A stretch of DNA of 64,000 nucleotides from Escherichia phage ALITA (PP359570), one strand, 5' to 3'; counted from the stretch's first letter, positions 6,348 through 45,597 are shown. Made by a program: numbers and translations. Notes: generated by a model not told the origin, from the sequence alone.

Positions 6348-6426
6348 CGCGGGATAGAGGAGTCTGGTCGTCCTCGCCAGTTTCATATGCTGGAGATCGT
6401 AGGTTCAAATCCTACTCCCGTTACCA
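6348..6426 (+). tRNA. tRNA-Met/Ile2 (anticodon CAT), second copy
   Basis: Acceptor CGCGGGA/TCCCGTT (terminal mismatch), D-arm GAGG/CCTC, anticodon arm CCAGT-TTCATAT-GCTGG, T-arm GTAGG-TTCAAAT-CCTAC, CCA encoded. Confidence 0.6.
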
Positions 6427-6470
6427 ATAAATACCTCCCTTCTGGTGTAATGATTAAATTACATTGACAC

Positions 6471-26351: not shown

Positions 26352-26817
26352 TTTAACTACAATCAAGGTGTCTGATCTACCTGTAACAACATCTGTTTCA
26401 GACACAGATTATTTTGTAACAGATCAATCAGGCATCACTAAGAAAACATCATTACGTGTTCTTCTTGCGGGTGCTGGTGTTACACGAAATCGTCTTTCTG
26501 CAAGGGGTACTGTCACAAATACCCTAGCTTTAGATATTAGCACGGCAGAGTATTTCTCTGCCACTTTATCTAGTCCAACTTGCAGTATTTCATTTAGTAA
26601 TGTTCCAGTTACAACTAACATTGTTCAAAACTTTACTCTATCTCTACGTCAAGGTAGTGGAGCAAATAAAGTAACGTGGCCTCAATCTGTTAAATGGAGT
26701 TTTGGTCGCGCTCCTGTTTTGAGTTATAAACAGGGAGCTACAGATATTTTTGAATTTGTTAGTTATGATAATGGAGCTACCTGGATAGGTAGTTTAGTGA
26801 TGGCAGGAGTGATTTAA
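26344..26817 (+). CDS. hypothetical baseplate protein
   Basis: 157-aa ORF overlapping neighbours by a few nt. Confidence 0.4.
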   Translation: MADLTTIKVSDLPVTTSVSDTDYFVTDQSGITKKTSLRVLLAGAGVTRNRLSARGTVTNTLALDISTAEYFSATLSSPTCSISFSNVPVTTNIVQNFTLSLRQGSGANKVTWPQSVKWSFGRAPVLSYKQGATDIFEFVSYDNGATWIGSLVMAGVI

Positions 26818-29693
26818 TGTCAAGAATTAAGCACAGAATTGACAATGTTTTCCAACTGATCGATGGACATATTCAGTTCTTAGATCGTAATACAGGTTTA
26901 ACTGTAGATCCTACAGTGCAACACTATGTATTAAACCCACAAAACGTTCTAGCTAATAACAGACACTTTATAAACTGGACTGCTCAAGAAGGGCAACCAA
27001 ACGGGGATGCTACAACAGAAGGTCAATCCGTGCTTATTCTTGGTTGCGCTTATGCATACCTGGCTTCCGGCGATACAAAGTATTTAGACTCTGCTAAAAA
27101 ATATTGGCAAGCCTATATAGATTACTTCTTTGGTGGTCAGCCTATTCCAGACCCGCCAGCAAAATATCGCCCTAACTGGATTATTAACGGTAAAGAACCA
27201 CGTCTTGCGCACTATCCTCTTACAGATGATGGCTACCCTACACACGGAGGTTTTAAGGGTAGCTTAATGACGTGGACTAACGGTAGAACAGTTATTCCTC
27301 ATGGTGCTCCTCATTGGGGAGAATACCTTGACAAAGCATGGTTTGCTTTTAATGGTAATCTAGGATGGAACTCTGTAAACGCTACAGTATATGCTGTTAA
27401 TGCAGATGGTACAACAGATTGGTCTAAGAAGGGAGATCAATGGGATGTTGATTGGATCATTGATCGTCTAGGACGTAAAGTTGATTGGGATGGAAATATC
27501 TTAGAAGAAGGTTTTCCAACATCCCAATACGGAACAGTTCAACTAAAAAATACTTCTGTAAACGGTACATATAAATTTAACTACGCGACTTGTAACCCTG
27601 TTGAACACGGTGGTTATTTAATGGAGCGTAACACTATGTGGCATAACAGACCAGTTAACGTTCCGGTAGAAATGGGCTTTCAGGATAATGCGTCAGATGC
27701 CGAAACTTGGTGGTGTGATGCTAACTACCTGATGTACCAAATTACAGGGGAAAGAAAATATTGGTTATGCTGGCAGTCTTCACTGTTAGTGTGTCAAGAT
27801 TACTCAAACATTGATATGTTTGATAAATTCTTCCGTAAGTCTACATATGCAACTATTCCGTTTACAGATGGCATCTCTTACGATTATTCGTATCCATCTA
27901 CAGCAATACCTAAATATTCAAGAGATACTTTAGGCTATATTGTTATTAGACAAGATGTTGCTGCTCAAACAACATTAGAACAGCAAGCCATTTGGTTTAA
28001 AGTTGATCAGAACTCTAAGTTACGAGTCCAGTTTCAAGGTGTAGATGACGCAGGACATGGTATTCTTTTCCGTCCAGAGTTGGAATTAAGTAAGACCAAA
28101 GATGAAAATAACACAGTAATTTACCGCTGTGGCTTACCACTAGGTACAGCTAATATGACAAGCATGGATATTCCACTATCCAGCTTTATGAGAAGTACCC
28201 CTCCTAGTGGTGGAACATATATTATCGCAGATCCGCGAATTATTGTTGACTGGGGTGACAATACTGTGGTACAATATAAGTATGTAACAGGTATTGCTGG
28301 AACTAATAATGACCAGATTGTTACTGCATCAATGGATACGGATGGTGGTGTTACTGTTGGTTTTTGGTTAACTCCTACATCAAAAGCTAATGTTAAGTCT
28401 ATTACATATAGAACATATGAAGATGACTTTAACATGACTATCACGGATGCTCAAGGTTGGAGATGGTGGGCTATGCTGCCTAAAACGCAAGGGGCATGGA
28501 GTACGAAGACTTTATCAGCCTCTGCTTTTAAGTTAAGTGCTTACCAGCCTAATCATCCAGAAACAGATCCTAAACCTTCAGCAATAAATCTTACTGCTGT
28601 AGATCAGGTAAATTTAGTTCTTGATACGGCTCCTGTCAATGGTTTAACAGGAACAATAGATTTCTATTGTATTAACGATGTACCTGAAAGATATTCGTCA
28701 TCTTCTGGTGATGATTATACCATGTACTTCCGTATTACTGTACAGGCTTCAAGTCCTCATACTGCTAAGTTAGGTGATTGTACTATTATTGACTATAAGT
28801 TAAATAGTCTTAATTACACACCAGGAATAATTCCATTCTCTAATATCAGTGACCCAAACACTGCATTATACGATGGATGGCGTGGTATTCCATACCCAGG
28901 ATACCAGTATCCTTCCTTATACTGTTTCGCAGGTAGGGATATTGATTGGACACGTTTAAACAACAGTATTGATTTCTTGTATGATGCTCAAATGTGGTTT
29001 TATAACACGTTTGATCCTGTGATGCCTGGGCCTATGGCACAAGCCTATGTGTGGGATCGTTGGGATGCAAGAAAATACGGTGAACCTAATACGTTTACAA
29101 TGAAACACTGGAATGAAAAAGCGTGGGATGGTTATGAAGCTCGTGCATTCTACTGTGCTTGTCATGCTGTATACGAACTTGTACAAAGAGGAGAAACACC
29201 TCCTGAAAAACTAGTAACTGTTTGTAAAAATTGGATCAACTACCTTAAATGGTTCCAAGACAATAATGATGGAAGAACACCAACTATCTTTAATCCAGAT
29301 GGTACAGTTCTTGCACCTATAGATGACTTTACTAGTCATATGTCTGCACTGTTTATGGCGGGTTGTTCAATCATGGGCTTGGCAGGTTATGATTCACAAA
29401 TTCCAAACATTGGTATTGTAGCAGATAGATGTTTTGATCTGATTCAGCAAAACTATATTGTGCTTTCCCCTAACCATCCGATGAATGGTTCCTGGAGTGT
29501 TGCACCACGCCCAGATTCAGATAACGGAATGTTCTTTGGTTTCCATGCTGGAGAACTATTACGTGGTTTTGGTTTATATGCCTTGTATCGTAAACTAAAC
29601 CCTCAAAACGCTTTACCAATTTTGGATAATAGTAACATACCAACACTAACTGTTCTAACTATGAATGATATTAGTGTTGATGTAACCAAATAA
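26817..29693 (+). CDS. large tail-fibre/baseplate structural protein (958 aa)
   Basis: Long ORF in tail block; Trp/Tyr-rich, no clear motif. Confidence 0.5.
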   Translation: MSRIKHRIDNVFQLIDGHIQFLDRNTGLTVDPTVQHYVLNPQNVLANNRHFINWTAQEGQPNGDATTEGQSVLILGCAYAYLASGDTKYLDSAKKYWQAYIDYFFGGQPIPDPPAKYRPNWIINGKEPRLAHYPLTDDGYPTHGGFKGSLMTWTNGRTVIPHGAPHWGEYLDKAWFAFNGNLGWNSVNATVYAVNADGTTDWSKKGDQWDVDWIIDRLGRKVDWDGNILEEGFPTSQYGTVQLKNTSVNGTYKFNYATCNPVEHGGYLMERNTMWHNRPVNVPVEMGFQDNASDAETWWCDANYLMYQITGERKYWLCWQSSLLVCQDYSNIDMFDKFFRKSTYATIPFTDGISYDYSYPSTAIPKYSRDTLGYIVIRQDVAAQTTLEQQAIWFKVDQNSKLRVQFQGVDDAGHGILFRPELELSKTKDENNTVIYRCGLPLGTANMTSMDIPLSSFMRSTPPSGGTYIIADPRIIVDWGDNTVVQYKYVTGIAGTNNDQIVTASMDTDGGVTVGFWLTPTSKANVKSITYRTYEDDFNMTITDAQGWRWWAMLPKTQGAWSTKTLSASAFKLSAYQPNHPETDPKPSAINLTAVDQVNLVLDTAPVNGLTGTIDFYCINDVPERYSSSSGDDYTMYFRITVQASSPHTAKLGDCTIIDYKLNSLNYTPGIIPFSNISDPNTALYDGWRGIPYPGYQYPSLYCFAGRDIDWTRLNNSIDFLYDAQMWFYNTFDPVMPGPMAQAYVWDRWDARKYGEPNTFTMKHWNEKAWDGYEARAFYCACHAVYELVQRGETPPEKLVTVCKNWINYLKWFQDNNDGRTPTIFNPDGTVLAPIDDFTSHMSALFMAGCSIMGLAGYDSQIPNIGIVADRCFDLIQQNYIVLSPNHPMNGSWSVAPRPDSDNGMFFGFHAGELLRGFGLYALYRKLNPQNALPILDNSNIPTLTVLTMNDISVDVTK

Positions 29694-29701
29694 GGAAAAT
29701 A

Positions 29702-31861
29702 ATGAAACAGGCTATTTTTACTGTAACTCGAAATACGAGAGTAAATGCCAGTTCATTCAGCTATAAGACCGTCGATGGAACGGCGGTCGCTGGTAGAGAT
29801 TATGTAGCTAAACAGGGAACAGTAACGTTCCCTTCTGATGCAGATTCTGCTACTGTAGTGGTTGATGTATATGAACGTCCGGCAAACTCTTTAGATCTTT
29901 ATTTTACTCTTGAGATTACTAGCATAAGTCAAAATAACATGATGATCAACGAAGAAATTCGTTGTGTTATTACGACTGATCAATCGAATACAACCCCACT
30001 AACTTGGCCTGTTGTGAAGTCTAGAATGTTTGATCCTAAGTTTTGGACAATAGATTCTCAAGCAACAGAGAGTTGTTCTATTATCTCTAATGGTGATTCT
30101 TTCACAGCAAGAATGGTTAATAGGACAGTGGCTGGTCTTGCTGGGATTATTTGGTCAACTTACGATAAATATGATCACAAAGGATTAGGCTACCAAGAAC
30201 ATTCTGACTTAAGTAAAGAAAAACTTTGGTTTAAAATGGAACTTAGTCAAGGTGTTCCTGGATTAAAAGAAGAAAAATTAATACCATCCTTAACAGTGAC
30301 ACTGAAGGATGAAACAGTTCATTATGTATCTCTAAACTTTTATGCAGAAGAAGTTTCAGAAGATGGTAAGACAGCAACAATCAAACTAGATTTCTCAAAT
30401 TTAAAATCTGGGCCAGAAAATGATATTGTTGTTGACACTACACAGATAGATAATATGTTCTTCTCCTTGATCTCCACAAGGTATCAAGAAATTGAAGATA
30501 TTATTCCTGTAGACAATGTGGATCTTTCCTTTAAGTTTACCATACTAGAGCCTGATACTGGTTACAGTATGATGAATATGGGTAATTTAAATGTTCCGGC
30601 GCACACCATAAGAATGTGTACATCTTATGATGATATGTATAACCTAACCCCAGAGCGAGTTATTTCTAACACCTATAGATTAGGTTATAGAGATATGATT
30701 AACCATTATAATGGTATGTCACACTATTATCAATTCAGTTGGGATGCTGGATCTAATAAATGGGCTTTGAATAGAACAGAATATTTAAACCCAGCAACAG
30801 AAGCCTGGTTTGATAATTTCCACGCTAATGCAAAAGCTATGGGCTACACAGTAATGAACTCCTTAAGTTTTGAACTTATGAGTACAGTGTGTCCTGTAGA
30901 ATGGGTACAACATACTTGGAATGATGATCTGGCTGCTACAGGTTATGAGCCACCAAGTTATGTTTTATCTCCTTCAATTGATGAAGGGATGAATTATTTA
31001 CAAGGTGTAATAAATAAGATAGCTTCTATATCCGCTGCCAATGATCTTCCTGTTATTATTCAGGTTGGTGAACCGTGGTGGTGGTATAACACAGCTACCA
31101 ATCTCCCGTGTATTTATGATTATGCAACCAAAGTTGCATTTAATAATGAAACTGGATTATATGCACAAGATGTTGGTACAGTTAAGAATTATAAAACTGG
31201 TACACCATATGATGAATATTATGCATTCCTATCTAAAACATTAGGACTGCGTGTTGCTAAATTTGCAACAGATACTAGATTAGCATATCCTGGAGCAAAA
31301 GTTACATTGTTACCATTTGTGCCATCCATCTTAGGTAACGGTATGATGGAGTTTGTTAACTTCCCTAAAGATCATTATATCCCAGAAAACTTTGACTTTT
31401 ATTGTTCAGAATGTTATGACTGGTTGTTGGAAGGTCAGATGGAAAGATCTTTCGACGCTATCACAATACCTAATGAGCAACTAGGTTTTAGTTATGATAA
31501 GATACATTATCTTGCAGGGTTTGTTCCAGATGCAACTCTAGCACCATTATATGGCTTTGATCCTGAATCAGACTACAGAACATATTTGTGGAAAATGATT
31601 ATAGGTAATATTGTATTGAATGACCAGAAGTTTGTTGGTTTGTATCAATACATATGGGCTTATCCACAAATTATGGCAGATTCATTAACTGTTCTTAATT
31701 CAAAATCCCAAGTTTTTTATATGGGTAATGTGCCTTTGAATTGCTATTTGCAAGATATCACTCTTAAACAGGTAAATGTTGAGATTGCCACCATAGGTGG
31801 AATTACATTAGCCACTAAATCTGGAGAAGATTTAGTAACAACACAAAAATTTTATATATAG
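29702..31861 (+). CDS. large tail-fibre/baseplate structural protein (719 aa)
   Basis: Long ORF with SD. Confidence 0.5.
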   Translation: MKQAIFTVTRNTRVNASSFSYKTVDGTAVAGRDYVAKQGTVTFPSDADSATVVVDVYERPANSLDLYFTLEITSISQNNMMINEEIRCVITTDQSNTTPLTWPVVKSRMFDPKFWTIDSQATESCSIISNGDSFTARMVNRTVAGLAGIIWSTYDKYDHKGLGYQEHSDLSKEKLWFKMELSQGVPGLKEEKLIPSLTVTLKDETVHYVSLNFYAEEVSEDGKTATIKLDFSNLKSGPENDIVVDTTQIDNMFFSLISTRYQEIEDIIPVDNVDLSFKFTILEPDTGYSMMNMGNLNVPAHTIRMCTSYDDMYNLTPERVISNTYRLGYRDMINHYNGMSHYYQFSWDAGSNKWALNRTEYLNPATEAWFDNFHANAKAMGYTVMNSLSFELMSTVCPVEWVQHTWNDDLAATGYEPPSYVLSPSIDEGMNYLQGVINKIASISAANDLPVIIQVGEPWWWYNTATNLPCIYDYATKVAFNNETGLYAQDVGTVKNYKTGTPYDEYYAFLSKTLGLRVAKFATDTRLAYPGAKVTLLPFVPSILGNGMMEFVNFPKDHYIPENFDFYCSECYDWLLEGQMERSFDAITIPNEQLGFSYDKIHYLAGFVPDATLAPLYGFDPESDYRTYLWKMIIGNIVLNDQKFVGLYQYIWAYPQIMADSLTVLNSKSQVFYMGNVPLNCYLQDITLKQVNVEIATIGGITLATKSGEDLVTTQKFYI

Positions 31862-31869
31862 GAGTAAAA

Positions 31870-33726
31870 ATGTCAACTACAATTACTAATTTACCCGAAA
31901 CATCAAAAGTTAATGGTTCAGATTACCTGGTTTTAGATCAATCTGATAAAACTGTTAAAAGCACAGTTTCCAACTTTCTTACTGACACTGGGGTGGTTTT
32001 AGCCACCCAGTTGAAAGATACAGATGGAGCAGAGTTAATAGGACATAGAAACGCTACGGTTGGCACTACTCTGGATTCAATTGCAGTCCGCTCAGATCAA
32101 TTTTCTACTATTCAGGAATGGGCATCATACCCAGCAAAGCACAAAACTTTAGCAGGCGGAACATATACTCTGGACTCTACTCTCAGTGTTGAATGTGAAT
32201 CACTGACCACTGAGGGTGTAGTTACTATAAATGCTTCTGGTTCATTCATCGCTATGTATTTTGGTACAAATCAGCGAGATTTACTAACCACTCTTAGCTC
32301 TGATATTTCAAAAGGGATAACCAGTCTTACTGTCGATAATGTTCAGGAAGGAGATACTTTATGCTTTTATAATCCTTCTGATTTTTCATGGTCTGGATAC
32401 CGGAATTATTATCGTAGTGGAGAGTTTGTTAAGGTTGTTAGATATTCAAATGGGATTGCACACTTCAATGGAGGGACGAAAGCCGCATACCCATCTGGGA
32501 CTCAAGTTTACAAGCTAAAAACAAAAAAAGTTTCTGTAAGCGGGGCTTTTGTATTTAATTTTCCTTCATACGACAAAACTGCTATGGCTATGCAATTCGA
32601 GCAGATAGCTGATGGTAACTTTGACAATCTCGTTGTCACATCTCACACCGCCCCTTATGCCGTTCAGTTTAAACGTTGTTTCAATCTTACCGGTAAGGGG
32701 ATGCGTCTCACACAGGAATCTCCTTCTGTAAGTTTTGGCTTAGAATATGGTTGCTACATCTGCAATAGCCAGAATATTGATTTTGAAGGTATATTCTGTG
32801 CAGAGCGCCATGCAGTCACTGTTACAGGTAATGATGAAATCTGCGGTATTGTTAACAGATTTGTCAGTGTTAACGCCAGCGGTGGCGGTGCAATCATGAC
32901 CACAGGGCAAGGCAAGGTTGCAGCAGCAGACTGGCACGGAAACACTGAAAAGTGCAGGTATGGTGGATATATTCAAGGGCTTGCTTGTGGTGGGTCTAAA
33001 AATAGCGCACGTGGTGCTCATATCGACCACGTACCTAACACCCCGGCATGGCCTAACATACTCGCTACGGAACTTAAGTCAATTGAGTTTGATTTAAGCA
33101 ATATCCATGTTACAGGGATAGGTGATCCATCTTCAGTAAACAGAGGTTGTATTGATTTTGGAGGTAACTCCACTGCATTTGGAGCTAATACTGTAGAACC
33201 TGGCACTTTGAATCTTTCTGGGGCTGTTATTGATTCTCCCGCAAACGTGTTGATTGAGATAAGGAACAGGGGTTCATTGGCTGCTCACACCATAAATCTT
33301 AATGGAGTTACCGCTAATGCAGAGAGCGGTAAGTACACGGTCAGGATTGCGCCAATTGGAGAAGGTATTTCCCCTTCAGATGTTTACATGGCAGGATTTA
33401 AGATGCCTGACGGCAGTATCTCACAGATAAATAACCTGTCATCAGTGAACGTACACGGGGTGTCCAAAAAAGGTAGATCTTCTATAACCATACCAAGTGG
33501 GGCCAGTTCTGCGGAGTTAACCATCCCTTTCGATTCCACTGTACTTGGTGCTCCGAAATCAGTTCAGTTTAATCGGTCAGGGCTTGTTCCAGCGGCACAA
33601 GCAAGGATTGTATTCTCTGAACGAACTTCGTCACCAACAGGGTTTCGGGTTATCGCGGCAACAGCTAACGGTAATACGCTCTCAGCAGACCTTACTATAC
33701 CGTTCTCATGGCGTGCAGATTGGTAA
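31870..33726 (+). CDS. tailspike-like protein (618 aa)
   Basis: Long ORF with SD; Gly/Ser/Thr-rich beta-type composition. Confidence 0.45.
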   Translation: MSTTITNLPETSKVNGSDYLVLDQSDKTVKSTVSNFLTDTGVVLATQLKDTDGAELIGHRNATVGTTLDSIAVRSDQFSTIQEWASYPAKHKTLAGGTYTLDSTLSVECESLTTEGVVTINASGSFIAMYFGTNQRDLLTTLSSDISKGITSLTVDNVQEGDTLCFYNPSDFSWSGYRNYYRSGEFVKVVRYSNGIAHFNGGTKAAYPSGTQVYKLKTKKVSVSGAFVFNFPSYDKTAMAMQFEQIADGNFDNLVVTSHTAPYAVQFKRCFNLTGKGMRLTQESPSVSFGLEYGCYICNSQNIDFEGIFCAERHAVTVTGNDEICGIVNRFVSVNASGGGAIMTTGQGKVAAADWHGNTEKCRYGGYIQGLACGGSKNSARGAHIDHVPNTPAWPNILATELKSIEFDLSNIHVTGIGDPSSVNRGCIDFGGNSTAFGANTVEPGTLNLSGAVIDSPANVLIEIRNRGSLAAHTINLNGVTANAESGKYTVRIAPIGEGISPSDVYMAGFKMPDGSISQINNLSSVNVHGVSKKGRSSITIPSGASSAELTIPFDSTVLGAPKSVQFNRSGLVPAAQARIVFSERTSSPTGFRVIAATANGNTLSADLTIPFSWRADW

Positions 33727-33827
33727 ATATTTATACTAAAAACTAAGACCCCAAACTATGCCTTTATTTATACATATAAAGTTTATTGTTTGTACTACCC
33801 CCATAGGATAGTGGGTGTTATGTCTAG

Positions 33828-34019
33828 ATGTCTTTCAACATACTAAGTATTATCTATGATAAGGAGACGCAAAGGGCGTATTCCCTACCTGCTGATATTG
33901 CCCCAGGTATTACTGCCATTAGTCTTAGTGCTGCTGTACTTGTGCATTCAGCGGGTTCTGTAGACCTTGGGGAATTAGCTGTATATCGTGATTTAAAAAG
34001 TAATGAGAACGCACCATGA
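33828..34019 (+). CDS. hypothetical small protein
   Basis: 63-aa ORF, weak SD. Confidence 0.3.
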   Translation: MSFNILSIIYDKETQRAYSLPADIAPGITAISLSAAVLVHSAGSVDLGELAVYRDLKSNENAP

Positions 34020-34261
34020 GAAAATTTTTAATAGGTATGTTTTGTACATATCCTGATAATAAAGTCAGTTCTACTAAAGTTTGGAATGCTATTGGTATGA
34101 TTGTTATGTCCAGTATGTTTATTTATTTGGGAATTGACAAAGAAATTCCTGAATGGATGGGCTGGGCTTTTGTTTTTATGATCACACCATCCAGACTAAT
34201 GAAGAATTTAATAGATTTACGTTGGGGCAGATCACCTGCCCCTGATAAGGAGGATAACTAA
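34016..34261 (+). CDS. small membrane protein with two predicted TM helices
   Basis: 81-aa ORF; hydrophobic VWNAIGMIVMSSMFIYLGI and EWMGWAFVFMITP. Confidence 0.4.
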   Translation: MRKFLIGMFCTYPDNKVSSTKVWNAIGMIVMSSMFIYLGIDKEIPEWMGWAFVFMITPSRLMKNLIDLRWGRSPAPDKEDN

Positions 34262-35748
34262 TGGCAGATTATGGTTTAACAGATGCTGGTTTTGTCATTC
34301 CAACGTTTGATGATATTCTAAATAATTATATGACAGCATTGAAAAACACTTTCGGTGCAGATACAGCTACATCTGAAGATACAGTCTTTGGTCAACTGTT
34401 TCGTATTATTGCATATACAGATTACACCCTTTGGGAAGGTATGCAAGGTGTTTACAATACCCAAACCTTAGATGGTGCAGAAGGTATTTACCTTGATGAA
34501 ATCTTCTCTAAAAGAGGTTTTTATCGTAAAGCTGCTTCTGCTGGTAGTGGTTATGCTTATGTTAAATCTAACAATAAGGCAGCTTGGACTTATGAACTAA
34601 GCACAGATGTTTATTTTAATGCCGATAACGATTTGACATATTATGTCAGTGCACCAACAATGTTGAATGCTAAGATTGGAGCATATACCATTTCTAAAGC
34701 AAACGCAACAGCTTCTGGTGAAACTTCTATTACTTTCTACATTCAAAGTGCTATTGATGGTGGTCTTAACAGTAAAACACTAAGTCCTAGCAATACAAAC
34801 TTTATTGTAGATCTCACGAATTTCATTAAAGCTAACGTATCAACAACAGATCGTGCTTTAGTATGGAATGATGCTGGTAATGTTTATATGGGTTATAATC
34901 CAGAAGATAATGTTAACCCAATAGGTCTAGTAACACCCGTGAAATTTTATGCATCTATTGCCATTGGTACAAAATGGAGTGAAATTCCAGTTACGTGTTC
35001 AGACGTTGGTTATAATCCAGTAGGTACAGAAAGTATTACAGGTATTTCTTCAACGTTTACAGGCTTTTTAGATACAGGTAACTTCTATCCGTTCTCTCCA
35101 GGTACAGATGTTGAAACAGATGCAGAATTCCGTTCTCGTTTCAATGATAATATGGATGAAGCTAATGCTGCTACTCGTGCTGCTATTGTTAAAGCTCTAT
35201 TACTGACAGATGGTGTGACAAAGGTTAAGATTTACGATAACCCTACACTACACGATCAGGAACATGCTCCAGCTATGACATTCCAGACTATTGTGTATGG
35301 TGGTACAGCAGAAGAAGTTGCACAGGTTATTTATAATACTAAGCCTATTAACACATTAACTTATGGTACGACAGCAATTACTATCGTAACAGAAGATGGT
35401 GGTCAAGAAGTAATTCGTTTTTCTCCTGGTGATAATGCGGAATACTCACTTAAACTGGTATATCAAACTGGTAATGGTAGTGTGTTAAGTACAACAGAAA
35501 GAGAAAATATTGTTTCTGCTCTTGCAAACTTACAGGCTTATTTTGAATTAGGGTCAACAGTAACTAACGATCAGATAAAAGGTGTAATTTATTCTGCACT
35601 TGCGTTCGGACGCTTGACTTCTCTCCGTGTTTATGTTAAACTTAATACTGAGGATGACAGTAAATATAATGAGGGAGATATCACTCCAGCGTACAATGTT
35701 GTACCATCCTTTGACCTTGATAATATTTCCTACGAGTACGGAGTCTAA
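34261..35748 (+). CDS. baseplate J-like protein
   Basis: 495-aa ORF; N-terminal region resembles baseplate J family; followed by smaller baseplate protein and fibre genes. Confidence 0.55.
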   Translation: MADYGLTDAGFVIPTFDDILNNYMTALKNTFGADTATSEDTVFGQLFRIIAYTDYTLWEGMQGVYNTQTLDGAEGIYLDEIFSKRGFYRKAASAGSGYAYVKSNNKAAWTYELSTDVYFNADNDLTYYVSAPTMLNAKIGAYTISKANATASGETSITFYIQSAIDGGLNSKTLSPSNTNFIVDLTNFIKANVSTTDRALVWNDAGNVYMGYNPEDNVNPIGLVTPVKFYASIAIGTKWSEIPVTCSDVGYNPVGTESITGISSTFTGFLDTGNFYPFSPGTDVETDAEFRSRFNDNMDEANAATRAAIVKALLLTDGVTKVKIYDNPTLHDQEHAPAMTFQTIVYGGTAEEVAQVIYNTKPINTLTYGTTAITIVTEDGGQEVIRFSPGDNAEYSLKLVYQTGNGSVLSTTERENIVSALANLQAYFELGSTVTNDQIKGVIYSALAFGRLTSLRVYVKLNTEDDSKYNEGDITPAYNVVPSFDLDNISYEYGV

Positions 35749-35750
35749 AA

Positions 35751-36380: not shown

Positions 36381-36393
36381 GGAGTTACTCTTA

Positions 36394-37377: not shown

Positions 37378-37386
37378 GGAGAGTCT

Positions 37387-37938
37387 ATGAAAAAAGACAT
37401 TATTTTTACAGGTTTTGAATTGTATGAACCAGAATTAACAGAAGAAAATATTCTTTATCTTTCTGTTGGTGGTGGTTTTTTGCAAGACAAAGATGGTAAC
37501 GACTGGTATCAGCTTCAAAAAACTTTGATGGTAGAATATCCCGACGCTTATTTTATTACCTTAGATGATAATAATATTGTACGTGGTGCTACTAAAGATG
37601 TTACTACCTATTTCCCTGCCGGACAATCTATTTTAGTTACATATAATGTACCAGATAAAATAGAAGATGAAAGTAATATTGGCTCTTGGCAATATGTTGA
37701 AGGTAAGTTTGTTCCTCACAATAATCTTGCTATTGAAGATGCTACTCTTAGGTTAGAAAAGGAGCTAACTTGGGCTACGAATCAAGTATCTGCGATTCAA
37801 GATTTAGAGGAATTACAAGGTTTATCTGAAGAACAAAAAGATTGGTTAGGAAAAGTTAAACTCTATCGTGCAACATTAATTCAAATTAACGTTGAAGATG
37901 CACCTAATATAACTTGGCCTACAAGACCTAAGAAATAG
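37387..37938 (+). CDS. putative tail fibre assembly protein
   Basis: 183-aa ORF immediately after fibre gene. Confidence 0.35.
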   Translation: MKKDIIFTGFELYEPELTEENILYLSVGGGFLQDKDGNDWYQLQKTLMVEYPDAYFITLDDNNIVRGATKDVTTYFPAGQSILVTYNVPDKIEDESNIGSWQYVEGKFVPHNNLAIEDATLRLEKELTWATNQVSAIQDLEELQGLSEEQKDWLGKVKLYRATLIQINVEDAPNITWPTRPKK

Positions 37939-37947
37939 GGGCAATGT

Positions 37948-38289
37948 ATGGAGCTAACAGAAGTATGGGATATCGCTAAAGAGGCGATTATCCCTCTTAT
38001 TGGCGTAATCTGGGTGGTCTTCAAACAGAAGATAGATGATATGGCAAGTGATTTGGATAAAATGGAAGACAAATACCGCGAACTAGAAAAGAAGTTGGTG
38101 TTTGTTGAATCCACTTATGCTACCAAAGCAGAACTTGCTCAAATGCTTAACCAGATCAACTCTACATTAATGGCAAATAATACTGCCTTAGAACAGAAGA
38201 TTGAAAAAATAATGGATTTAAAAAATGCTCCTGTTCAATTAATGCTAGAGGAGATTACAAAGCGCACACAAAGTAAGGACAAAAATTAA
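37948..38289 (+). CDS. hypothetical protein (N-terminal TM helix plus coiled coil)
   Basis: 113-aa ORF. Confidence 0.35.
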   Translation: MELTEVWDIAKEAIIPLIGVIWVVFKQKIDDMASDLDKMEDKYRELEKKLVFVESTYATKAELAQMLNQINSTLMANNTALEQKIEKIMDLKNAPVQLMLEEITKRTQSKDKN

Positions 38290-40703
38290 TGGCGAATTTT
38301 CCAACATATCCTGCTACGACACTAGAACAAGGTGTTGATCTGGTTATATTCTCGTCTAACCAGATGCATGATGTTATTAATGGGGATGCTACAGCAACTG
38401 TAGAAACCGAAACAGGTTTAATACCTACACTGCGTAAAGCACTTGTTGATAACTTCTTCTTTAAGAGTCCTGTTGCTTGGTCAGCAGGATCAACTGAAAC
38501 TGTATTTAACCAGTTACGTTATTTTGAAAACGGTATCTTGAGTGGGTACTATTATGCCCCATCTGCCACTACTGCGAACCCTGTACCTATGCAGGGCACA
38601 CCTGTAGGGGACAGTAACTGGACTCTGTACGCTCTTAAAACTGAACAGTTAGCTTCAGATGTGTATCCTTGGTATTTTAAAGGTGCTACAGGATATGAAA
38701 CAGAAATCAGTCCTCCTTATATCTTTGATAATGCTATTGTCACCATTAACGGTGTAATTCAGATTCAAGGTGAAGCATTTACTATCAAAGATAGTAAAAT
38801 TATTCTGGCAGAACCATTAGGTTTAGATCCGTCTACTGGTCTACCTAACAAATTGTTTGCTTTTATTGGTAAAACAACAGCCTCTACTTCTTACGTAGAG
38901 AAAAACCTTTTGTCATCTACCACTGGTGCAGCAATGGTTGGTCTTCCATCTGGAGGCAACCTGTTACAAGCTCAATACTTTGTAACGCCTGAGCAGTTTG
39001 GTGCAATTGGTGATGGAGTTACCGATGATACTCAAGCAATTTTAAAAACTATTACTTTCGCTAACACGAATAACATTCAAGTACGTGCAGATAAGAATTA
39101 TAGATTCACAAGCTCAATTGCTATGTCTGGTATTCGTTGGTATGGTGGTACATTCACTGGTAACGGTGGAACAATGATTTCTACTGTGTCCTGTTGGATG
39201 GAAAACGTTCGCTTTGAAAAATGTTATGTTAAGATGTTAGGTGGTGATTGCCGATTCTATCGTAATATCTTCTCCAACGCAACATCTACAGCAGCATTCT
39301 TAATGCAAGCAATGACAAGTGAAGGTACGTTGGACTTCAGTTACAACGAAATGTATGGTTGTAAATATGCGATCCTGCAACAAGGTACTGGAGAAGTAAT
39401 GACCTACGGGCGTTACTCTAACAACTATATTCACGATATCAAAGGTGATGCTATTGAACTTAACGTAGTTCAAAAACACTACACTGAAGGTTTGATTATC
39501 GAGAATAACCACATTGCTAACGTAGATGCTTCTGGACAAGGTGCAAACTGGGGTATTGGTATTGGTGTAGCAGGTAGTGGCCCATATGGTGTTGATGTTC
39601 CTGATTCACAATATGTACGTAATTTCAGTATCGTTGGGAATAGGGTTTACAATTGCCGTCAATGTCTACACGTTGAAATGGGTAAAAACTTCACAATACG
39701 TGATAATGAAGTTTATCCTAACACAGCAGTTTCAACAGGTACAGGTTTAACTACTTGTGGTGTTGCATTATACGGATGCCAAGATTTTGAAGTTGATGGT
39801 TTAACTGGTTATCTGCTCAATGATCCGTCTGTTTCAACACGTATGGTCTTTATTGACTGGGGTGTTAACAGTGGAAGATATGCGGGGCCACCAATTAACT
39901 TTACAATTAAGAATTTGGATATTCCAGAATCTTCAATTGAGATTGCAACCTCTGGATCAGATGCTTGGGAAAACTCTACAATTGTTAGTAATATCAATTG
40001 TAATGTTTTTAAATGGCGTGGGCTACCATCTAGCTCTACTTTTAATAATATTCGTTGCCGTAGTATTGACTTTATTGGTCAACACGGAAGCGGAGAAGGA
40101 AGTGGTGGCGGTTTCTATACTCGCAGCCAATTCACGTATATGAAGTGGGTAGGATGTACAGCACTTAGCGGAGATGAAACAACAGTTTCTTTTGCTAAAA
40201 TCTACACTGATCGTTGCGATCAGGTTGGAAATAACTTTGGTGTTCCAACTGCTGTTGATGGTACAGGTCATCGTGGGCCAGTTTTAACTACTATTTCTGA
40301 ACAATATTTTACAGCTTATGATGAATTCCCAGGTGGGCGTGAATTCCCTACTGGAACAGTTATTCATTGTGCAAGCGGTAAAAAACATGTTGTTACAGTA
40401 GGTGGTGCTTTCTTTAGTGCCAACGAGAAAATAAAAGCAACTGTTACAGGTCAAACCTATCTACAGTCTAATGCTTTAAACTGGGCTAGTAATGGCTACG
40501 CTAAAGCAGCAGGTACTAAGATTGTTATTCCAGGTGCAGGTGCAAATGGCGGCGATCTTGTGACAACTATAGCACGTGCTACATATGTGACAAATAGTTT
40601 GTACACAATAGATATTGCAGATCCAATTGTAACACCTACAGCAGAGAATACACAAATTAAAGCTCTGAATCCTGTTACTTTTGTTACTGTCAACAATGCT
40701 TAA
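38289..40703 (+). CDS. tailspike with pectate-lyase-like right-handed beta-helix domain (putative depolymerase)
   Basis: 804-aa ORF; segment GAIGDGVTDDTQAILKTI typical of the N-terminus of pectate-lyase-superfamily beta-helix domains. Confidence 0.55.
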   Translation: MANFPTYPATTLEQGVDLVIFSSNQMHDVINGDATATVETETGLIPTLRKALVDNFFFKSPVAWSAGSTETVFNQLRYFENGILSGYYYAPSATTANPVPMQGTPVGDSNWTLYALKTEQLASDVYPWYFKGATGYETEISPPYIFDNAIVTINGVIQIQGEAFTIKDSKIILAEPLGLDPSTGLPNKLFAFIGKTTASTSYVEKNLLSSTTGAAMVGLPSGGNLLQAQYFVTPEQFGAIGDGVTDDTQAILKTITFANTNNIQVRADKNYRFTSSIAMSGIRWYGGTFTGNGGTMISTVSCWMENVRFEKCYVKMLGGDCRFYRNIFSNATSTAAFLMQAMTSEGTLDFSYNEMYGCKYAILQQGTGEVMTYGRYSNNYIHDIKGDAIELNVVQKHYTEGLIIENNHIANVDASGQGANWGIGIGVAGSGPYGVDVPDSQYVRNFSIVGNRVYNCRQCLHVEMGKNFTIRDNEVYPNTAVSTGTGLTTCGVALYGCQDFEVDGLTGYLLNDPSVSTRMVFIDWGVNSGRYAGPPINFTIKNLDIPESSIEIATSGSDAWENSTIVSNINCNVFKWRGLPSSSTFNNIRCRSIDFIGQHGSGEGSGGGFYTRSQFTYMKWVGCTALSGDETTVSFAKIYTDRCDQVGNNFGVPTAVDGTGHRGPVLTTISEQYFTAYDEFPGGREFPTGTVIHCASGKKHVVTVGGAFFSANEKIKATVTGQTYLQSNALNWASNGYAKAAGTKIVIPGAGANGGDLVTTIARATYVTNSLYTIDIADPIVTPTAENTQIKALNPVTFVTVNNA

Positions 40704-40707
40704 TTAA

Positions 40708-40730
40708 AAAGGGGCGAAAGCCCCTTTATA
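40708..40730 (+). terminator. rho-independent terminator
   Basis: GGGGC-GAAA-GCCCC followed by TTTATAAAA. Confidence 0.5.
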
Positions 40731-40744
40731 AAAGGAGTAGTAAA

Positions 40745-42706
40745 GTGATTTTAACACGTCCAAATAGTGCCATTGCAGACATGGTAGAGTCTCGCTATAG
40801 AAAGCGTAGAAGTTTTGCAAGTGGTTTTACCTTAAGAGATGCTCGTGAAGCATTGCTCTTTGAAACTGACGGTAACTACTATCAGTGGAAAGGTTCTCTA
40901 CCTAAAGTTGTACCTGCTAACTCTACTCCTACATCTACTGGAGGGATTTCAGATACAGCTTGGAAAAATGTGGGTAATGCAGATGACATTGCTCAAATAG
41001 AATCAGAATTAGATGCTATTGAAGCTGAAATTGAAGATCTTAGAGAATCCATTCCAGAGGCTGGTAAATCAGCTTACCAGATTGCCGTAGACAATGGTTT
41101 CCAAGGTACTGAGACAGAGTGGTTGGCTTCTTTAAAAGGTGATCCAGGTGCTCCATTAAAGCTGCTAGGGACGCTATCTAATACCAACCAATTACCTACA
41201 ACTGGAAACAATGCAGGAGATGCATGGATTGTAGGCGAGAATATGTATGCTTGGGATGGTACGGCTTGGAGAAAAGTAAACTCACAGGGGCCAGAAGGTA
41301 AATCCGCTTATCAAGTTTGGCTTGCAGCAGGAAACCAAGGTACAGAACTAGATTATCTTGCTTCAATTAAAGGTGATAAAGGGGAGCCTGGCCCAGAGGG
41401 GCCACAAGGTGTGCCAGGTAACAATGCTAATGGTTTTGATTACCAAGGTGCAGCTAATTCCGTTTCAGATCTTCCTTCTGCATCTCCTGGAAACACATCT
41501 CAAGCATGGAGTATTGGTACATATCTATACGTGTCAAACGGTGTAGAATGGATCAATATGGGTGCTATAGTGGGGCCAAAAGGAGATAAAGGCGACAAAG
41601 GAGATAAGGGTAACACTGGTGATTCTGCTTATCAAGTCTGGTTAAATGCTGGTAACGTTGGTACTATTGACGAATATATTGCCTCTCTGAAAGGAGAAAA
41701 AGGTGATAAGGGAGACAAGGGTGATCAAGGTGAGCAGGGTATACAAGGCTTGACGGGGCCAACTGGTGCAGGGTTGACCATTATTGATATTCTGACTGAC
41801 ACTTCTGAACTACCAGGAACTGGAGAAGATGGTGATGGTTATCTGATCAATAATGAACTTTGGGTTTGGTTGCAAGGAGCCACACAGTGGACAAATGTTG
41901 GTCGTTTAGCTGGTACTCCAATCACTGCAAAAGGACACGTTGCGTCTGCAAGTGCACTTCCTCCTACATCCAATTACGGTGATGCTTATCTGACGGAAGA
42001 TACAGGTCATCTTTACATTTACACCTATGATGAACAAACTCAAACTGCTGAATATGTAGATATGGGTAGTTTGAAAGGTGATAAGGGTGAGAAAGGTGAC
42101 GCTGGTACTAACGGTACGGATGGTGCAACTTGGATTGTTAAAACAACAGATCCAATCTCTAGTGATGGTAAACAAGGTGATTATGCCTTTAATATCTCCA
42201 CTGGCGAGGTGTTCTTAAAAACATCTGCAACTGTCTGGACTTCTCAAGGTACACTACCTAGCATCACAGATGCACCTAGTGACGGTAAGATCTATGCTCG
42301 TAAAGATGGAGCATGGGAAGAACTCACTAGTTCTGTAGATGGTCAAGATATAGTTCCAACAAAAGTAACAACTAATTTTATAGAGGTTACAGCATACACC
42401 AACAACTCTGTTACAGGGGACTGGACACCTCCAGGAACACATAACATGAATGTGTTGAATCTTACTGGTAACTCTACTATAAAAGCATGGCCTGGTGTCG
42501 AAGATAGCACAAAACCTAAACCATTCTCTGCAATAGTTTATCTTATCCAAGATGCCACTGGGGGTCATACTGTTACTTTAGATCCATCTTACAAAGTAAT
42601 TGGTTCTAGTGATATTAATACAGATCCTAACGGAGTAACAATACTACAACTAACATATTGTGGTGTTGGTGATTACGTGGATGCTATTGTTGCTAAACGC
42701 ACATAA
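40745..42706 (+). CDS. tail fibre protein with collagen-like G-X-Y repeats
   Basis: 653-aa ORF; runs such as GDKGEPGPEGPQGVPG, GPKGDKGDKGDKGNTGD, KGEKGDKGDKGDQGEQGIQGLTGPTGAG; three copies of a GKSAYQ...SLKG module. Confidence 0.65.
   Translation: MILTRPNSAIADMVESRYRKRRSFASGFTLRDAREALLFETDGNYYQWKGSLPKVVPANSTPTSTGGISDTAWKNVGNADDIAQIESELDAIEAEIEDLRESIPEAGKSAYQIAVDNGFQGTETEWLASLKGDPGAPLKLLGTLSNTNQLPTTGNNAGDAWIVGENMYAWDGTAWRKVNSQGPEGKSAYQVWLAAGNQGTELDYLASIKGDKGEPGPEGPQGVPGNNANGFDYQGAANSVSDLPSASPGNTSQAWSIGTYLYVSNGVEWINMGAIVGPKGDKGDKGDKGNTGDSAYQVWLNAGNVGTIDEYIASLKGEKGDKGDKGDQGEQGIQGLTGPTGAGLTIIDILTDTSELPGTGEDGDGYLINNELWVWLQGATQWTNVGRLAGTPITAKGHVASASALPPTSNYGDAYLTEDTGHLYIYTYDEQTQTAEYVDMGSLKGDKGEKGDAGTNGTDGATWIVKTTDPISSDGKQGDYAFNISTGEVFLKTSATVWTSQGTLPSITDAPSDGKIYARKDGAWEELTSSVDGQDIVPTKVTTNFIEVTAYTNNSVTGDWTPPGTHNMNVLNLTGNSTIKAWPGVEDSTKPKPFSAIVYLIQDATGGHTVTLDPSYKVIGSSDINTDPNGVTILQLTYCGVGDYVDAIVAKRT
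41063..42130 (+). repeat. intragenic collagen-like triplet repeats and tripled module within tail fibre gene
   Basis: Repeated ggtgataaRggNgaN DNA units and three SAYQ-module copies near 41065, 41296, 41618. Confidence 0.55.
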
Positions 42707-42707
42707 T

Positions 42708-42734
42708 CAAAGCCCCTTCGGGGGCTTATTGTTT
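42708..42734 (+). terminator. rho-independent terminator
   Basis: AGCCCC-TTCG-GGGGCT followed by TATTGTTT. Confidence 0.55.
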
Positions 42735-42745
42735 AAGGAGATTAA

Positions 42746-44905
42746 ATGTATCCTATTCCTTTATTTATGTCAACAACATCAGCTTCAGTAGTAACAGCTA
42801 CATCTATAACTACTTCCTCTATTGGTATTGCAATAGTTGGTGGTAAAAAACAACTGACATACACAGTTACACCCGAAGATGGTGCGTTATTTGATATAGC
42901 TTTTTCATCTTCAGATGATACCAAAATGGTTATAGATAATAGTGGTATGATGGAGTTTGTTGCCGAAGGTGGTTTTGATGCAATAATGACAGCTAAAAAT
43001 AATTTAGGTGCTGTCTTAACTGATCAATCTGGTGGTTATGCTTCAGAATTAAGTGTGTACACTGAAAGTCTATCGGCTATGGATGTAGGCACTACTCAAC
43101 AGTTGGTTGCTACAATCAGTCCAGAAGGTGCTAAAGACCTTCCAGATATGGTAATTACATACACCACAACAGATCCAGAAGTAGCTACTGTAAGCCCTAC
43201 AGGGTTAATAACTGCTCTTAAAGATGGCGGTTGCCGTATAGGTTGTACTGCAACGTATCAAGGAACAGTTGTGGCCTCTGATAGTTCTTATTTAGGTGTT
43301 AATGCTATTCCTGTTATTTCTAATGTAACAGCCGTGGCAAACAGCTATGGAGACGTTCGTGTTGCTTGGGATGTAGCTGATCCGCTAGACGGTGATACTT
43401 ATACTGTAGAAGTATTAGATTTAAGTAATAATAGTGTTCAGTGGACTACAACAACCACGAATACTTACGCCTACTTTGATATCTCTGACTCTATTCCTCT
43501 TTATGGGTTTGCTCCAACATACCTTAAAATTAGCGTTAAGAGCACCAAAGCAGCAGCCGTTATCTTTAATAACTCAATAGCTACAGATGATTCGTTCATT
43601 AAAGAAGTTATTGTCTTTGCTGGACAAGATAACGTAAATGCACACTTTACAGAACTATCTGGTGCAAATAAAGCAGCAATGGGTAGCACAACAGCCCGTA
43701 ATGCATATGCTACGCAACGTGGTTTAGCAAATGCTGAAGTTCTTCCGTTAAATACAGCTTCTGGATCATCAGCAGCAGATAAATATGCTGACGATAAAGC
43801 TGGAACAGGTACACCAGATAACTACTGGTATGATTTGGATAACACAGCAGATGGGCCATGCTTAACTAACTTTATCACTAAAGTCACACCTTATGCAAGT
43901 AAGGTTAAAGCAATTATTTGGGGACAAGGTGAAAATGATGCTGTATCAGCATCTTCGACTGTTGCAGGTAGGTACAGTAACACTACACGTTACCATGATG
44001 CTACGATAGCTATCTTTGATAAGATGCGTACAATAGTTCCTGCTTCTCAAGCAAAAATTGTTTGGCAGATCCTAGGACGTTCTTATTTATATGGTGTAGA
44101 AGTTAATGGTGTGGATTGGCAGAAGTACAGAAATGTACAAAGAACCATCTCTACAGCACGTGATGATGTTATCATTGGTTCTTGGGTAGATGGTGCTGAA
44201 CGTTACAGTGGTTATGTTTATGAAGAAGGTATTGATGGTCGTATCCATTATGTTTCTTCTGTATACCAAACAGCAGCTACAAAACTTGCTAAATCAGCAG
44301 CAGACGGTACAGACTTAACATCAACGTCACCTGTTTGGGTTGATATGGCTGTTCCAACTGGAGCAACAGCTACTTCCCAACCTAATCAAGATACAATTTT
44401 AGCATGGGATGCTCAAGGCTATAGTAAACACTACTTCCGTAATATTAACGTCTTAACCGCATCTGTATTAACTGAACAAACGCTTAATACGAACAGTTAT
44501 ACGTTTACCTATGCAGATCAAGTAGAACAATATGGTTTTGCAGCAGGAACTACTATATTTGATGTTGCATATTATGACGAAGCAAATGATGTGTTATCTC
44601 CTTTAGTACGTTTTAATGTTAACGTTACAGCAGGAACCGTAGAAGATAAACCTGTCGTGATGGACTATGATTTGACGCAAGAAACTCTTCCATCAGATGT
44701 TAAGGTTAATGGTGGGAACTCTTTTGCTCGTGCTTCTGGAGATATACTTGTAGCCACTAACACCTTGGTTGCTCCGTTGGAGTATGTTGGTAATACCCCT
44801 GTAGGTAGACGTGTAACAGCTAACACAGCTTCACAAATTTTTGTCAACAACGCCTTAACAAGTGCAAGCCCGTGGGTAAAGACCAACTTAACTGTTGCAG
44901 CTTAA
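42746..44905 (+). CDS. tail fibre / tailspike with SASA-type (SGNH-like) carbohydrate esterase domain
   Basis: 719-aa ORF; esterase-like motifs VIVFAGQDNVNAHF and KAIIWGQGENDA in the central region; Ig-like N-terminal region. Confidence 0.5.
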   Translation: MYPIPLFMSTTSASVVTATSITTSSIGIAIVGGKKQLTYTVTPEDGALFDIAFSSSDDTKMVIDNSGMMEFVAEGGFDAIMTAKNNLGAVLTDQSGGYASELSVYTESLSAMDVGTTQQLVATISPEGAKDLPDMVITYTTTDPEVATVSPTGLITALKDGGCRIGCTATYQGTVVASDSSYLGVNAIPVISNVTAVANSYGDVRVAWDVADPLDGDTYTVEVLDLSNNSVQWTTTTTNTYAYFDISDSIPLYGFAPTYLKISVKSTKAAAVIFNNSIATDDSFIKEVIVFAGQDNVNAHFTELSGANKAAMGSTTARNAYATQRGLANAEVLPLNTASGSSAADKYADDKAGTGTPDNYWYDLDNTADGPCLTNFITKVTPYASKVKAIIWGQGENDAVSASSTVAGRYSNTTRYHDATIAIFDKMRTIVPASQAKIVWQILGRSYLYGVEVNGVDWQKYRNVQRTISTARDDVIIGSWVDGAERYSGYVYEEGIDGRIHYVSSVYQTAATKLAKSAADGTDLTSTSPVWVDMAVPTGATATSQPNQDTILAWDAQGYSKHYFRNINVLTASVLTEQTLNTNSYTFTYADQVEQYGFAAGTTIFDVAYYDEANDVLSPLVRFNVNVTAGTVEDKPVVMDYDLTQETLPSDVKVNGGNSFARASGDILVATNTLVAPLEYVGNTPVGRRVTANTASQIFVNNALTSASPWVKTNLTVAA

Positions 44906-45046
44906 TCTGATAAATCTCCGGCTGGAACTACTGCCAATGTATTCAAATTAACTCCGACTACAACCTCTGGTAGTCATATCTTAACTGCAACATATACTAA
45001 CGCGTACAACATATCTGCCGGACGTAACTGGTCTGCCTCTGTTTTC

Positions 45047-45565
45047 TTGAAAGCGAACGGGATCACTAAGGCCAAACTAAGATTAAAAGCAGGAACTGAA
45101 GTTAATGAGGGTACTTTTGATTTAGCAGCAGGTACATTCACAGGAAGTGAAGCTAATATTATATCTATGGGCAACGGTTGGTATCGTGCTATTCTGCATA
45201 AAACAGGGATAGCCAAACAGTCCTCCATAAGTTTTGAAATAATTGCCTTGGATGCAACTGGTGCGGAGATTTTCGCTGGAGATGGTACTAGTAACCTTGC
45301 AGTTTGGTTGCCACAGCTTGAAGGTGCTTCTACAGGAGAAACATCAAAAGCTGGATCGCCTTATGTCTGCACATATCCTGGAAATTTAGGAGGAGTATCC
45401 TTCACTATACCAAGGAACGGACATACTGGTGTGGATGTTTACTATTCCAACGGAGACGTTGTTCGTGACGTATTCTCTGGTACGGCATCTACTTGGACAA
45501 TAAACTACTCCAGCTTGTACGATTGGGGATCAGTCTTTATTACAGGTTTGAAATATTACGACTAA
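45047..45565 (+). CDS. ORF in the same frame as the upstream tail fibre gene, separated only by a TAA (possible read-through extension, C-terminal domain gene or pseudogenised 3' part)
   Basis: 44906-45046 contains 47 sense codons in frame with 42746..44905; first conventional start is TTG 45047 without SD. Confidence 0.3.
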   Translation: MKANGITKAKLRLKAGTEVNEGTFDLAAGTFTGSEANIISMGNGWYRAILHKTGIAKQSSISFEIIALDATGAEIFAGDGTSNLAVWLPQLEGASTGETSKAGSPYVCTYPGNLGGVSFTIPRNGHTGVDVYYSNGDVVRDVFSGTASTWTINYSSLYDWGSVFITGLKYYD

Positions 45566-45567
45566 TA

Positions 45568-45597
45568 AAAAAGGAGCCATTAGGCTCCTTTTCTTTT
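45568..45597. terminator. bidirectional rho-independent terminator between convergent gene blocks
   Basis: AAGGAGCC-ATTA-GGCTCCTT hairpin flanked by AAAAA upstream and TTCTTTT downstream. Confidence 0.65.

Follow-up and report, generated by a model that had tools for sequence, protein, structure and literature searches.

In 2012 Schwarzer et al. reportedly described a multivalent adsorption apparatus in phage phi92. The stretch of Escherichia phage ALITA analysed here (PP359570; 64,000 nucleotides, called the window below and numbered from its first letter) carries at 26344-45592 a locus of tailspike, fibre and baseplate genes that is very probably a phi92-like host-adsorption module, co-displaying several glycan-directed proteins, with one exchangeable tailspike slot and no programmed switch. 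The multivalent adsorption apparatus of phi92 is covered in PMC5380687, and a review citing Schwarzer et al. 2012 lists Gp143 as an endosialidase, Gp141 and Gp142 as glycosidases, Gp150 as a colanidase and Gp151 as a fibre. Maffei et al. 2021 called the orthologous loci of rV5-like, phAPEC8-like and phi92-like phages a "nanosized Swiss army knife" in which the bulk of the genes is conserved and few are variable (PMC8594841), and the same view is taken genus-wide in the genome announcement of phage Eryne (PMC11984140). In a 2026 cryo-electron microscopy (cryo-EM) study of phi92, the wedge consists of gp145 and gp146 and bears three sets of fibres, which attach to gp145. Fibre III was assigned to gp147, gp143 was inferred to be the tip of the L-shaped fibre I and fibre II was left unassigned; gp140 was among the fibre candidates, and the colanidase activity of gp150 is cited (PMC13450770). 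For phi92, cryo-EM and host-range studies together have made known that its baseplate carries several types of fibre simultaneously and that its host range is broad.

DNA and protein comparison places the window in Justusliebigvirus, a genus of phi92-like myoviruses in the subfamily Stephanstirmvirinae. The 18.7-kb region shares 97-99% DNA identity over 85-90% of its length with many Escherichia phages of the genus, including PaulScherrer (Bas60), alia and KMB37, with 98.5% nucleotide identity across 90% of the region for PaulScherrer and alia. All open reading frames (ORFs) of the locus could be mapped gene by gene onto phi92, and the order matches from gp140 to the last fibre gene. The arrangement shared with phi92 and PaulScherrer runs from hub and spike genes through gp140-143, the wedge genes gp145 and gp146, and the short fibre gene with its chaperone gene, to gp150, gp151 and the last fibre gene (Table 1). 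Protein identity to phi92 is 96-100% for gp140-142, gp144-147 and gp149-151, the exceptions being the gp143 slot and gp148 (80%). The core of the module is a Mu/P2-type set formed by gp145 and gp146 (wedge), gp147 (short fibre) and gp148 (chaperone), the last two being homologous to Mu gpS and gpU (PMC8594841). Accessory genes lie on both sides, with gp140, gp141, gp142 and the gp143-slot tailspike upstream and gp149, gp150, gp151 and the last fibre downstream. No significant family match was obtained for the 113-aa gp149 orthologue in the domain scan.

A sequence-only reading of the window had listed six large ORFs of 958, 719, 618, 804, 653 and 719 aa as fibre or tailspike genes following the baseplate genes. 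All six are present on the plus strand, and five of them predict proteins with 97.9-99.7% identity to phi92 gp141, gp142, gp150 or gp151 or to the PaulScherrer last fibre. They are not contiguous: ORFs of 81, 495, 209, 327, 183 and 113 aa separate the third from the fourth, so that the wedge genes (34261-36380), the short fibre and chaperone genes and two small genes intervene. The set is the already described phi92-type multi-fibre set, real but ordinary for this phage group. The arsenal, called unusually large from the sequence, is a hallmark of phi92-like phages, and the predicted multi-receptor apparatus matches the literature on phi92 and the genus, in which it comprises several different glycan-active tailspikes and fibres. 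Likewise, Phapecoctavirus and the rV5/PVP-SE1-like phages (Vequintavirinae) have large, orthologous and mostly conserved lateral-fibre loci, with several glycan-hydrolase fibre genes and few variable alleles (PMC8594841); unlike Justusliebigvirus, the Vequintavirinae have two paralogous short fibres (PMC8594841). New in the present locus are only a rare cassette allele in the gp143 slot, a nonsense codon, private to this genome, that interrupts the last fibre gene (broken in phi92 too), and hints from gene fusions on the place of gp141 and gp142.

In the gp143 slot, a 618-aa tailspike replaces the 918-aa endosialidase of phi92. Its N-terminal anchor, roughly aa 1-60, is conserved. It further comprises an Ig-like domain (PF20745) and the pectate-lyase-fold, right-handed beta-helix anticipated from the sequence, which belongs to PF22442 (47 bits, cut-off 27). 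The Protein Data Bank (PDB) matches, namely 4ru4 (LKA1 gp49, E=2e-21), 4ru5 and 4y9v, lead to the O-antigen lyase tailspikes LKA1 gp49 and phi297 gp27 of the same fold family. What it shares with phi92 EndoN92 is residues 1-54, and with the PaulScherrer allele residues 1-61, at 92% identity; the remainder is unrelated. A body with 93% aa identity occurs in 3 of 50,697 phage records, all from phages isolated on Escherichia coli O177, and the next match is at 33%. At the nucleotide level, 76% of the cassette is 87% identical to the tailspike gene of a P22-like prophage in the bovine E. coli USDA-ARS-USMARC-50748 (NZ_CP104117, 1559931-1562003; positions 5560-7632 of our record L006), which adjoins the prophage integrase gene. 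The two tailspikes share the body, which in the window is joined to an anchor of the kind seen in Justusliebigvirus gp143 instead of the head-binding domain of a podovirus. On this comparison, a lytic myovirus and a temperate podovirus have exchanged the tailspike body.

The GC content of the cassette (0.44-0.46) is above that of its flanks (0.35-0.40). Downstream of it, homology in blastn resumes at 33844 with PaulScherrer and at 33896 with KMB37 (33844-34021 overall), and this return of homology evidently marks the 3' recombination boundary. The spacer at this point includes a 63-aa ORF (33828-34019), probably left over from a previous cassette, which corresponds to small ORFs annotated as 'tailspike protein' in PaulScherrer (bas60_0028) and KMB37. 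The gp143-slot tailspike is predicted to be an O-antigen-specific depolymerase, and its slot is the only exchangeable, variable one in the locus. Its anchor also has a counterpart in gp140, as residues 9-46 of gp140 share 39% identity (E=4e-5) with residues 5-42 of the anchor (31870-32010), and the two proteins may dock at the same kind of site.

Table 1. Features of the adsorption module in the window, in order of position
Feature	Coordinates	Strand	Basis or identity
gp140 orthologue, small fibre-like protein, 157 aa	26344-26817	+	100% to phi92; phi92 annotation is tail fiber protein
gp141 orthologue, 958 aa, (alpha/alpha)6-barrel glycoside-hydrolase fold with beta-sandwich inserts	26817-29693	+	99.7% to phi92
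gp142 orthologue, 719 aa, Calx-beta and N4-like domains	29702-31861	+	98.2% to phi92
gp143-slot tailspike, 618 aa	31870-33726	+	only aa 1-54 common to phi92
Spacer 3' of the cassette	33727-34015	+	blastn boundaries, ORF list
gp144 orthologue, small membrane protein, 81 aa	34016-34261	+	96% to phi92 (96-99% including PaulScherrer); annotation
gp145 orthologue, baseplate wedge (Baseplate_J / T4 gp6-like), 495 aa	34261-35748	+	PF04865, phrog_6; 99.4% to phi92
gp146 orthologue, second wedge subunit (DUF2612; P2 gpI position), 209 aa	35751-36380	+	PF11041; 100% to phi92
gp147 orthologue, short tail fibre ('fibre III', Mu gpS-like)	36394-37377	+	phrog_4465, E=2e-108; 98.5% to phi92
gp148 orthologue, tail-fibre assembly chaperone (Caudo_TAP)	37387-37938	+	PF02413; 98% to PaulScherrer, 80% to phi92
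gp149 orthologue, 113 aa	37948-38289	+	99% to phi92 (99-100% across relatives)
gp150 orthologue, colanidase tailspike, 804 aa	38289-40703	+	PDB 6e0v; 99.6% to phi92
gp151 orthologue, fibre, 653 aa	40745-42706	+	PF18668, PF01391, PF07921; 97.9% to phi92
Last fibre gene, 939 codons, in-frame TAA at 44903-44905	42746-45565	+	region annotated gp152 and gp153 in phi92
Terminator-like hairpin, 10-bp stem and T-run	45569-45592	+	closes the structural module; genes beyond on minus strand

The best terminator-like hairpin lies directly 3' of the last fibre gene. Matches to sigma-70-like promoters number 68, and 65.7 are expected in shuffled sequence; because they do not rise above the shuffled level, no operon substructure is claimed.

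The gp150 orthologue matches the crystallised phi92 gp150 colanidase (PDB 6e0v) with 1430 bits, belongs to phrog_6117 and has a WcaM-like beta-helix; by homology it is a colanic-acid-degrading tailspike. The gp151 orthologue begins with a Tail_spike_N anchor of the CBA120 TSP type (TSP1/gp66; 75.5 bits), which is also recovered in matches to anchor domains in the PDB. Its collagen domain scores 32.5 bits (cut-off 27.2) and comprises four GXY runs of 6, 6, 9 and 6 triplets, 27 in total, that alternate with three repeat modules of ~65 aa. It also has a fibritin-C-like segment and a C-terminal knob. The collagen-like character proposed from the sequence is therefore borne out in this ORF, as short segments that separate globular repeat modules and not as a single long stalk. 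The anchor domain is shared with the branched TSP1-4 complex of CBA120 (Kuttervirus) and with G7C gp63.1/gp66, from phages that show several spikes per particle; unlike in CBA120, it occurs in only one protein of the locus. A branched apparatus is plausible here, the hints being this anchor on gp151 and a fusion of gp141-like and gp142-like parts described below. A GC-rich hairpin, AAGCCCCTTCGGGGGCTT, with a weak T-tail is found at 42710-42727, directly behind the stop codon of gp151 and ahead of the last fibre gene, and might lower expression of the last fibre.

The last fibre shares its N-terminal Big_2 part with 890-aa proteins of Phapecoctavirus. Behind this anchor, Phapecoctavirus carries an RCC1-type body and Justusliebigvirus an SGNH-like one. 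An SGNH/SASA esterase had been proposed among the large ORFs, and this is partly borne out here: a domain homologous to N4 gp65, probably SGNH-like, is present, but Pfam SASA (PF03629) stays below threshold (14.9 bits, cut-off 24.8, E=0.02) and the nucleophilic serine is an aspartate. A five-sequence profile of residues ~281-523 matches two domains of N4 gp65 (E=2.7e-32). The AlphaFold2 (AF2) model of the 939-aa protein shows beta-alpha alternation over residues 287-519 at a mean predicted local distance difference test (pLDDT) value of 54.5. Because this confidence is poor, the Foldseek matches, with N4 gp65 first (E=4e-24) and the SGNH-fold proteins PatB (TMt 0.50) and LAE5 (TMt 0.55) lower down, are used only alongside the independent profile match.

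Block I of the domain reads FAGQDN (aa 291-296) in the window as well as in every close relative and phi92, with Asp in place of the nucleophile Ser. The corresponding motif is GGDN in a sister group (our records P0152-154) and GQSN in N4-like homologues (P0156 and P0157), which keep the serine, as does N4 gp65 itself. Block III (WGQGENDA, aa 392-399) and the block V histidine (GRIHY, aa 498-502) are present. Together, the profile and fold matches make the fold assignment reasonable, with the canonical nucleophile missing. Inactivity is likely, though not proven, as an unconventional deacetylase triad is found among the fold matches (9h4u), and the domain may derive from that of N4 gp65 as a lectin-like form that has lost catalysis.

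The second 719-aa ORF, counted as the sixth large gene, is not a gene of its own. With a 172-aa ORF in the same frame (45047-45565) it forms a single 939-codon gene cut by a TAA. Codon 720 is TAA in the window and TCA or TCG in relatives, the difference being a C-to-A change at 44904. The coding sequence is intact (2820 nt, 939 aa) in PaulScherrer, KMB37, inny and Paula, and the protein is 939 aa also in alia. All 16 phage records with a match here lack the stop. Among 31 close protein clusters, 30 have lengths of 936-939 aa, one is 899 aa and none ends at 719, and a search of public assemblies found no record of the exact 719-aa product. The 15 tRNAs of the window include no suppressor that would read TAA. 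Missing from the truncated fibre are the distal 219 aa, in which NF048003 ("head spike fiber") scores 60.8 bits (cut-off 36). Natural short homologues of 645-647 aa and the phi92 frame ('...FTVNVT') end ~90 residues upstream of the stop, so the 719-aa product keeps a complete known architecture and probably still assembles, though without its distal domain.

In phi92 (NC_023693; positions 31321-32983 of our record L003) the same gene, annotated as gp152 and gp153, is reduced to a pseudogene-like remnant. It carries a 218-nt deletion (nt 591-808 of the window gene) and a frameshift inside the SGNH-like domain, and the last ~936 nt have no counterpart. The gene of the window is full-length but nonsense-cut, whereas that of phi92 has decayed, and independent loss or truncation of the last fibre gene has evidently occurred at least twice. 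If the TAA were a minority variant or a mistake of sequencing or assembly, the sixth fibre would be intact in the real population; this would fit a change of one C to A that is missing from all 16 matching records and all listed protein clusters and whose truncated product is nowhere on record. However, finished phage assemblies seldom contain errors in which a single base is substituted, the product retains a complete architecture, and the independent decay in phi92 indicates that loss of this fibre is tolerated. We therefore regard such an artefact as unlikely, though not far-fetched, and take the stop codon as probably real. With the last fibre broken in both phages, gene counts overstate the number of working receptor binders.

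Upstream of the gp143 slot, gp142 is closest to proteins of phage N4. It contains a Calx-beta domain (PF03160), NCTSP_N as an N4 gp65-like N-terminal domain, and the N4 Gp64-like NCTSP TIM barrel (PF23844 and PF23845, the latter with 274 bits). It matches N4 Gp64 (PDB 9lc0_M, E=2e-28) as well as one segment of N4 gp65 (9lc0_I, E=2.5e-12). The GMSHY motif is found at aa 338-342 (nt 30713-30727). Like N4, phi92-like phages depend on wecB and nfrB and on the NGR glycan (PMC8669472), and a 2026 preprint reports that GMSHY is perfectly conserved in NGR-binding phages and that phi92 gp142 is the NGR receptor-binding protein (bioRxiv 10.64898/2026.04.02.716166). The orthologue in the window is predicted to bind or modify this glycan. 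Relative to the non-contractile sheath heterodimer Gp64/gp65 of N4 (PDB 9lc0, 9yf4), gp142 resembles Gp64 plus the NGR-motif segment of gp65, and the SGNH-like domain of the last fibre matches two gp65 domains, as described above. Unlike N4, the phage here has a contractile tail, and the domains are divided between two of its proteins and have no tube-sheathing role.

No match to gp141 was found in Pfam, NCBIfam or PDB sequences. Its family members are 44-57% identical from end to end and scarcely depart from a length of ~940 aa; they occur in Enterobacter and E. coli contigs, Pseudomonas, a Stenotrophomonas phage and marine bacteria. A model built from 39 sequences (pLDDT 85.8, predicted template modelling score, pTM, 0.82) has an (alpha/alpha)6 barrel like those of GH8, GH76 and GH105, with 8-13% identity to the structural matches; many Asp, Glu and Trp residues are invariant, and sequence-defined glycoside hydrolase families give no match in Pfam or NCBIfam. 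As the model is confident, the 958-aa protein is not fibre-shaped, and its earlier listing as a fibre or tailspike gives way to that of a widely conserved glycosidase-fold module.

Two fusions bear on its position. In a P2-like prophage, a protein (P0089; L007, 7001-10294) joins Tail_P2_I (aa 6-142) to a gp141-like body, in the gene order V, W, J, I::gp141. In the tail module of an SU10-like podovirus, another (P0091; L008, 6691-11364) joins a gp141-like body to NCTSP_N and the NCTSP TIM barrel, which are the gp142 domains. The occurrence of gp141-like bodies on such different tail types argues for a portable peripheral appendage instead of a core wedge part, and the two fusions together suggest a physical chain from a gpI-like wedge subunit through gp141 to gp142. 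The phi92 cryo-EM study screened fibre-shaped candidates only and left aside the globular, enzyme-fold gp141 and gp142 (PMC13450770). As a tentative proposal, the two would form an 'arm' of the phi92-type baseplate, either as the scaffold of the L-shaped fibre I or as fibre II.

The same fusion to a wedge protein, the conservation of gp141 across distant hosts, a pattern more typical of structural parts, and the near invariance of five of the six large proteins within the genus could be taken to mean that most of the large ORFs encode structural baseplate or wedge components and not receptor-binding or glycan-active proteins. We consider this improbable. The Baseplate_J and DUF2612 signatures are confined to the 495-aa and 209-aa ORFs and occur in none of the six large ones. 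Moreover, gp150 is a colanidase whose crystal structure is known, gp142 combines homology to the receptor-binding sheath of N4 with the NGR motif, the 618-aa ORF encodes a tailspike shared with a P22-like prophage, and gp141 has a glycosidase fold and is also found on a podovirus tail in which no wedge is present.

A switchable host range had also been proposed from the sequence. A search of 26-46 kb for inverted repeats and cassette duplicates gave no duplicates, and the only inverted repeats in it are short and imperfect (20-32 nt, 71-86% complementary) and lack any flanking geometry; the meaningful repeats of the locus are the GXY-coding triplets and modules of gp151, all others being at chance level. 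A programmed switch of host range by DNA inversion, cassette shuffling or diversity generation, which the homology of gp147 and gp148 to Mu gpS and gpU, switched in Mu by inversion of the G segment, might otherwise recommend, is thus most improbable, given that all genes of the locus lie on one strand, that a duplicated alternative fibre/chaperone pair is absent from it, that no invertase or reverse-transcriptase domain was detected among the region ORFs scanned, and that relatives differ by replacement of a cassette and not by its orientation. The variation seen is instead evolutionary exchange at one slot.

For the phi92-like adsorption module preferred here, the genes present and their orthology, the assignment of domains and folds, the limits of the cassette and the stop codon are taken from the comparisons above, and display on the wedge, triggering by gp147, the colanidase activity and NGR dependence from the literature. 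The accessory products would be displayed together on six wedges, so that one virion would carry several glycan-directed tools at once: the gp143-slot tailspike for O antigen, gp150 for depolymerising colanic acid and gp142 for the NGR exopolysaccharide, along with the (alpha/alpha)6 glycosidase-fold gp141, the collagen-segmented fibre gp151 and the fibre with Big_2 and SGNH-like domains. Surface polysaccharides would be bound or cleared by these tools until gp147, the short fibre, arrives at the outer membrane, where its rearrangement would trigger contraction of the sheath. Among relatives, host range would shift when the gp143-slot body is swapped behind the conserved anchor of ~60 residues, with no programmed switch involved. 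Several points weigh against this picture. The places given to gp141, gp142, gp150, gp151 and the last fibre in the virion are provisional, and the cryo-EM study left fibre II without an assignment and placed gp143 in fibre I by inference only. The O-antigen specificity predicted for the cassette derives from its homologues and from the body shared with the P22-like prophage tailspike only. The model of the last fibre is of low confidence, and an enzymatic role for that fibre is doubtful in an SGNH-like domain that lacks the canonical serine.

Outside the module, the DNA polymerase gene (48920-51499, minus strand) predicts a protein of 859 aa without the 245-aa intein present in PaulScherrer and phi92, where the protein is 1104 aa in both. 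Residues 1-577 and 577-859 match the PaulScherrer extein residues 1-577 and 822-1104 at 100%, and the window genome accordingly carries an intein-free allele. A cluster of 15 tRNA genes at 3540-6648 on the plus strand comprises two each for Met, Leu and Ser and one each for Lys, Tyr, Asn, Thr, Gly, Gln, Pro, Phe and Ile. The segment 14001-16000 has a GC content of 0.436, with a GC skew near 0, and that of neighbouring sequence is ~0.37.

As a whole the locus adds little to the picture of phi92-like multivalent adsorption, which has been documented since 2012 and is now being resolved structurally. The fusion evidence offers a cheap proposal for the place of gp141 and gp142 in the baseplate, and the last fibre is dispensable enough to have been broken in both phi92 and the phage of the window. 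Within the genus, host range is apparently set mainly by one exchangeable tailspike slot, for which the allele found here is a rare one.

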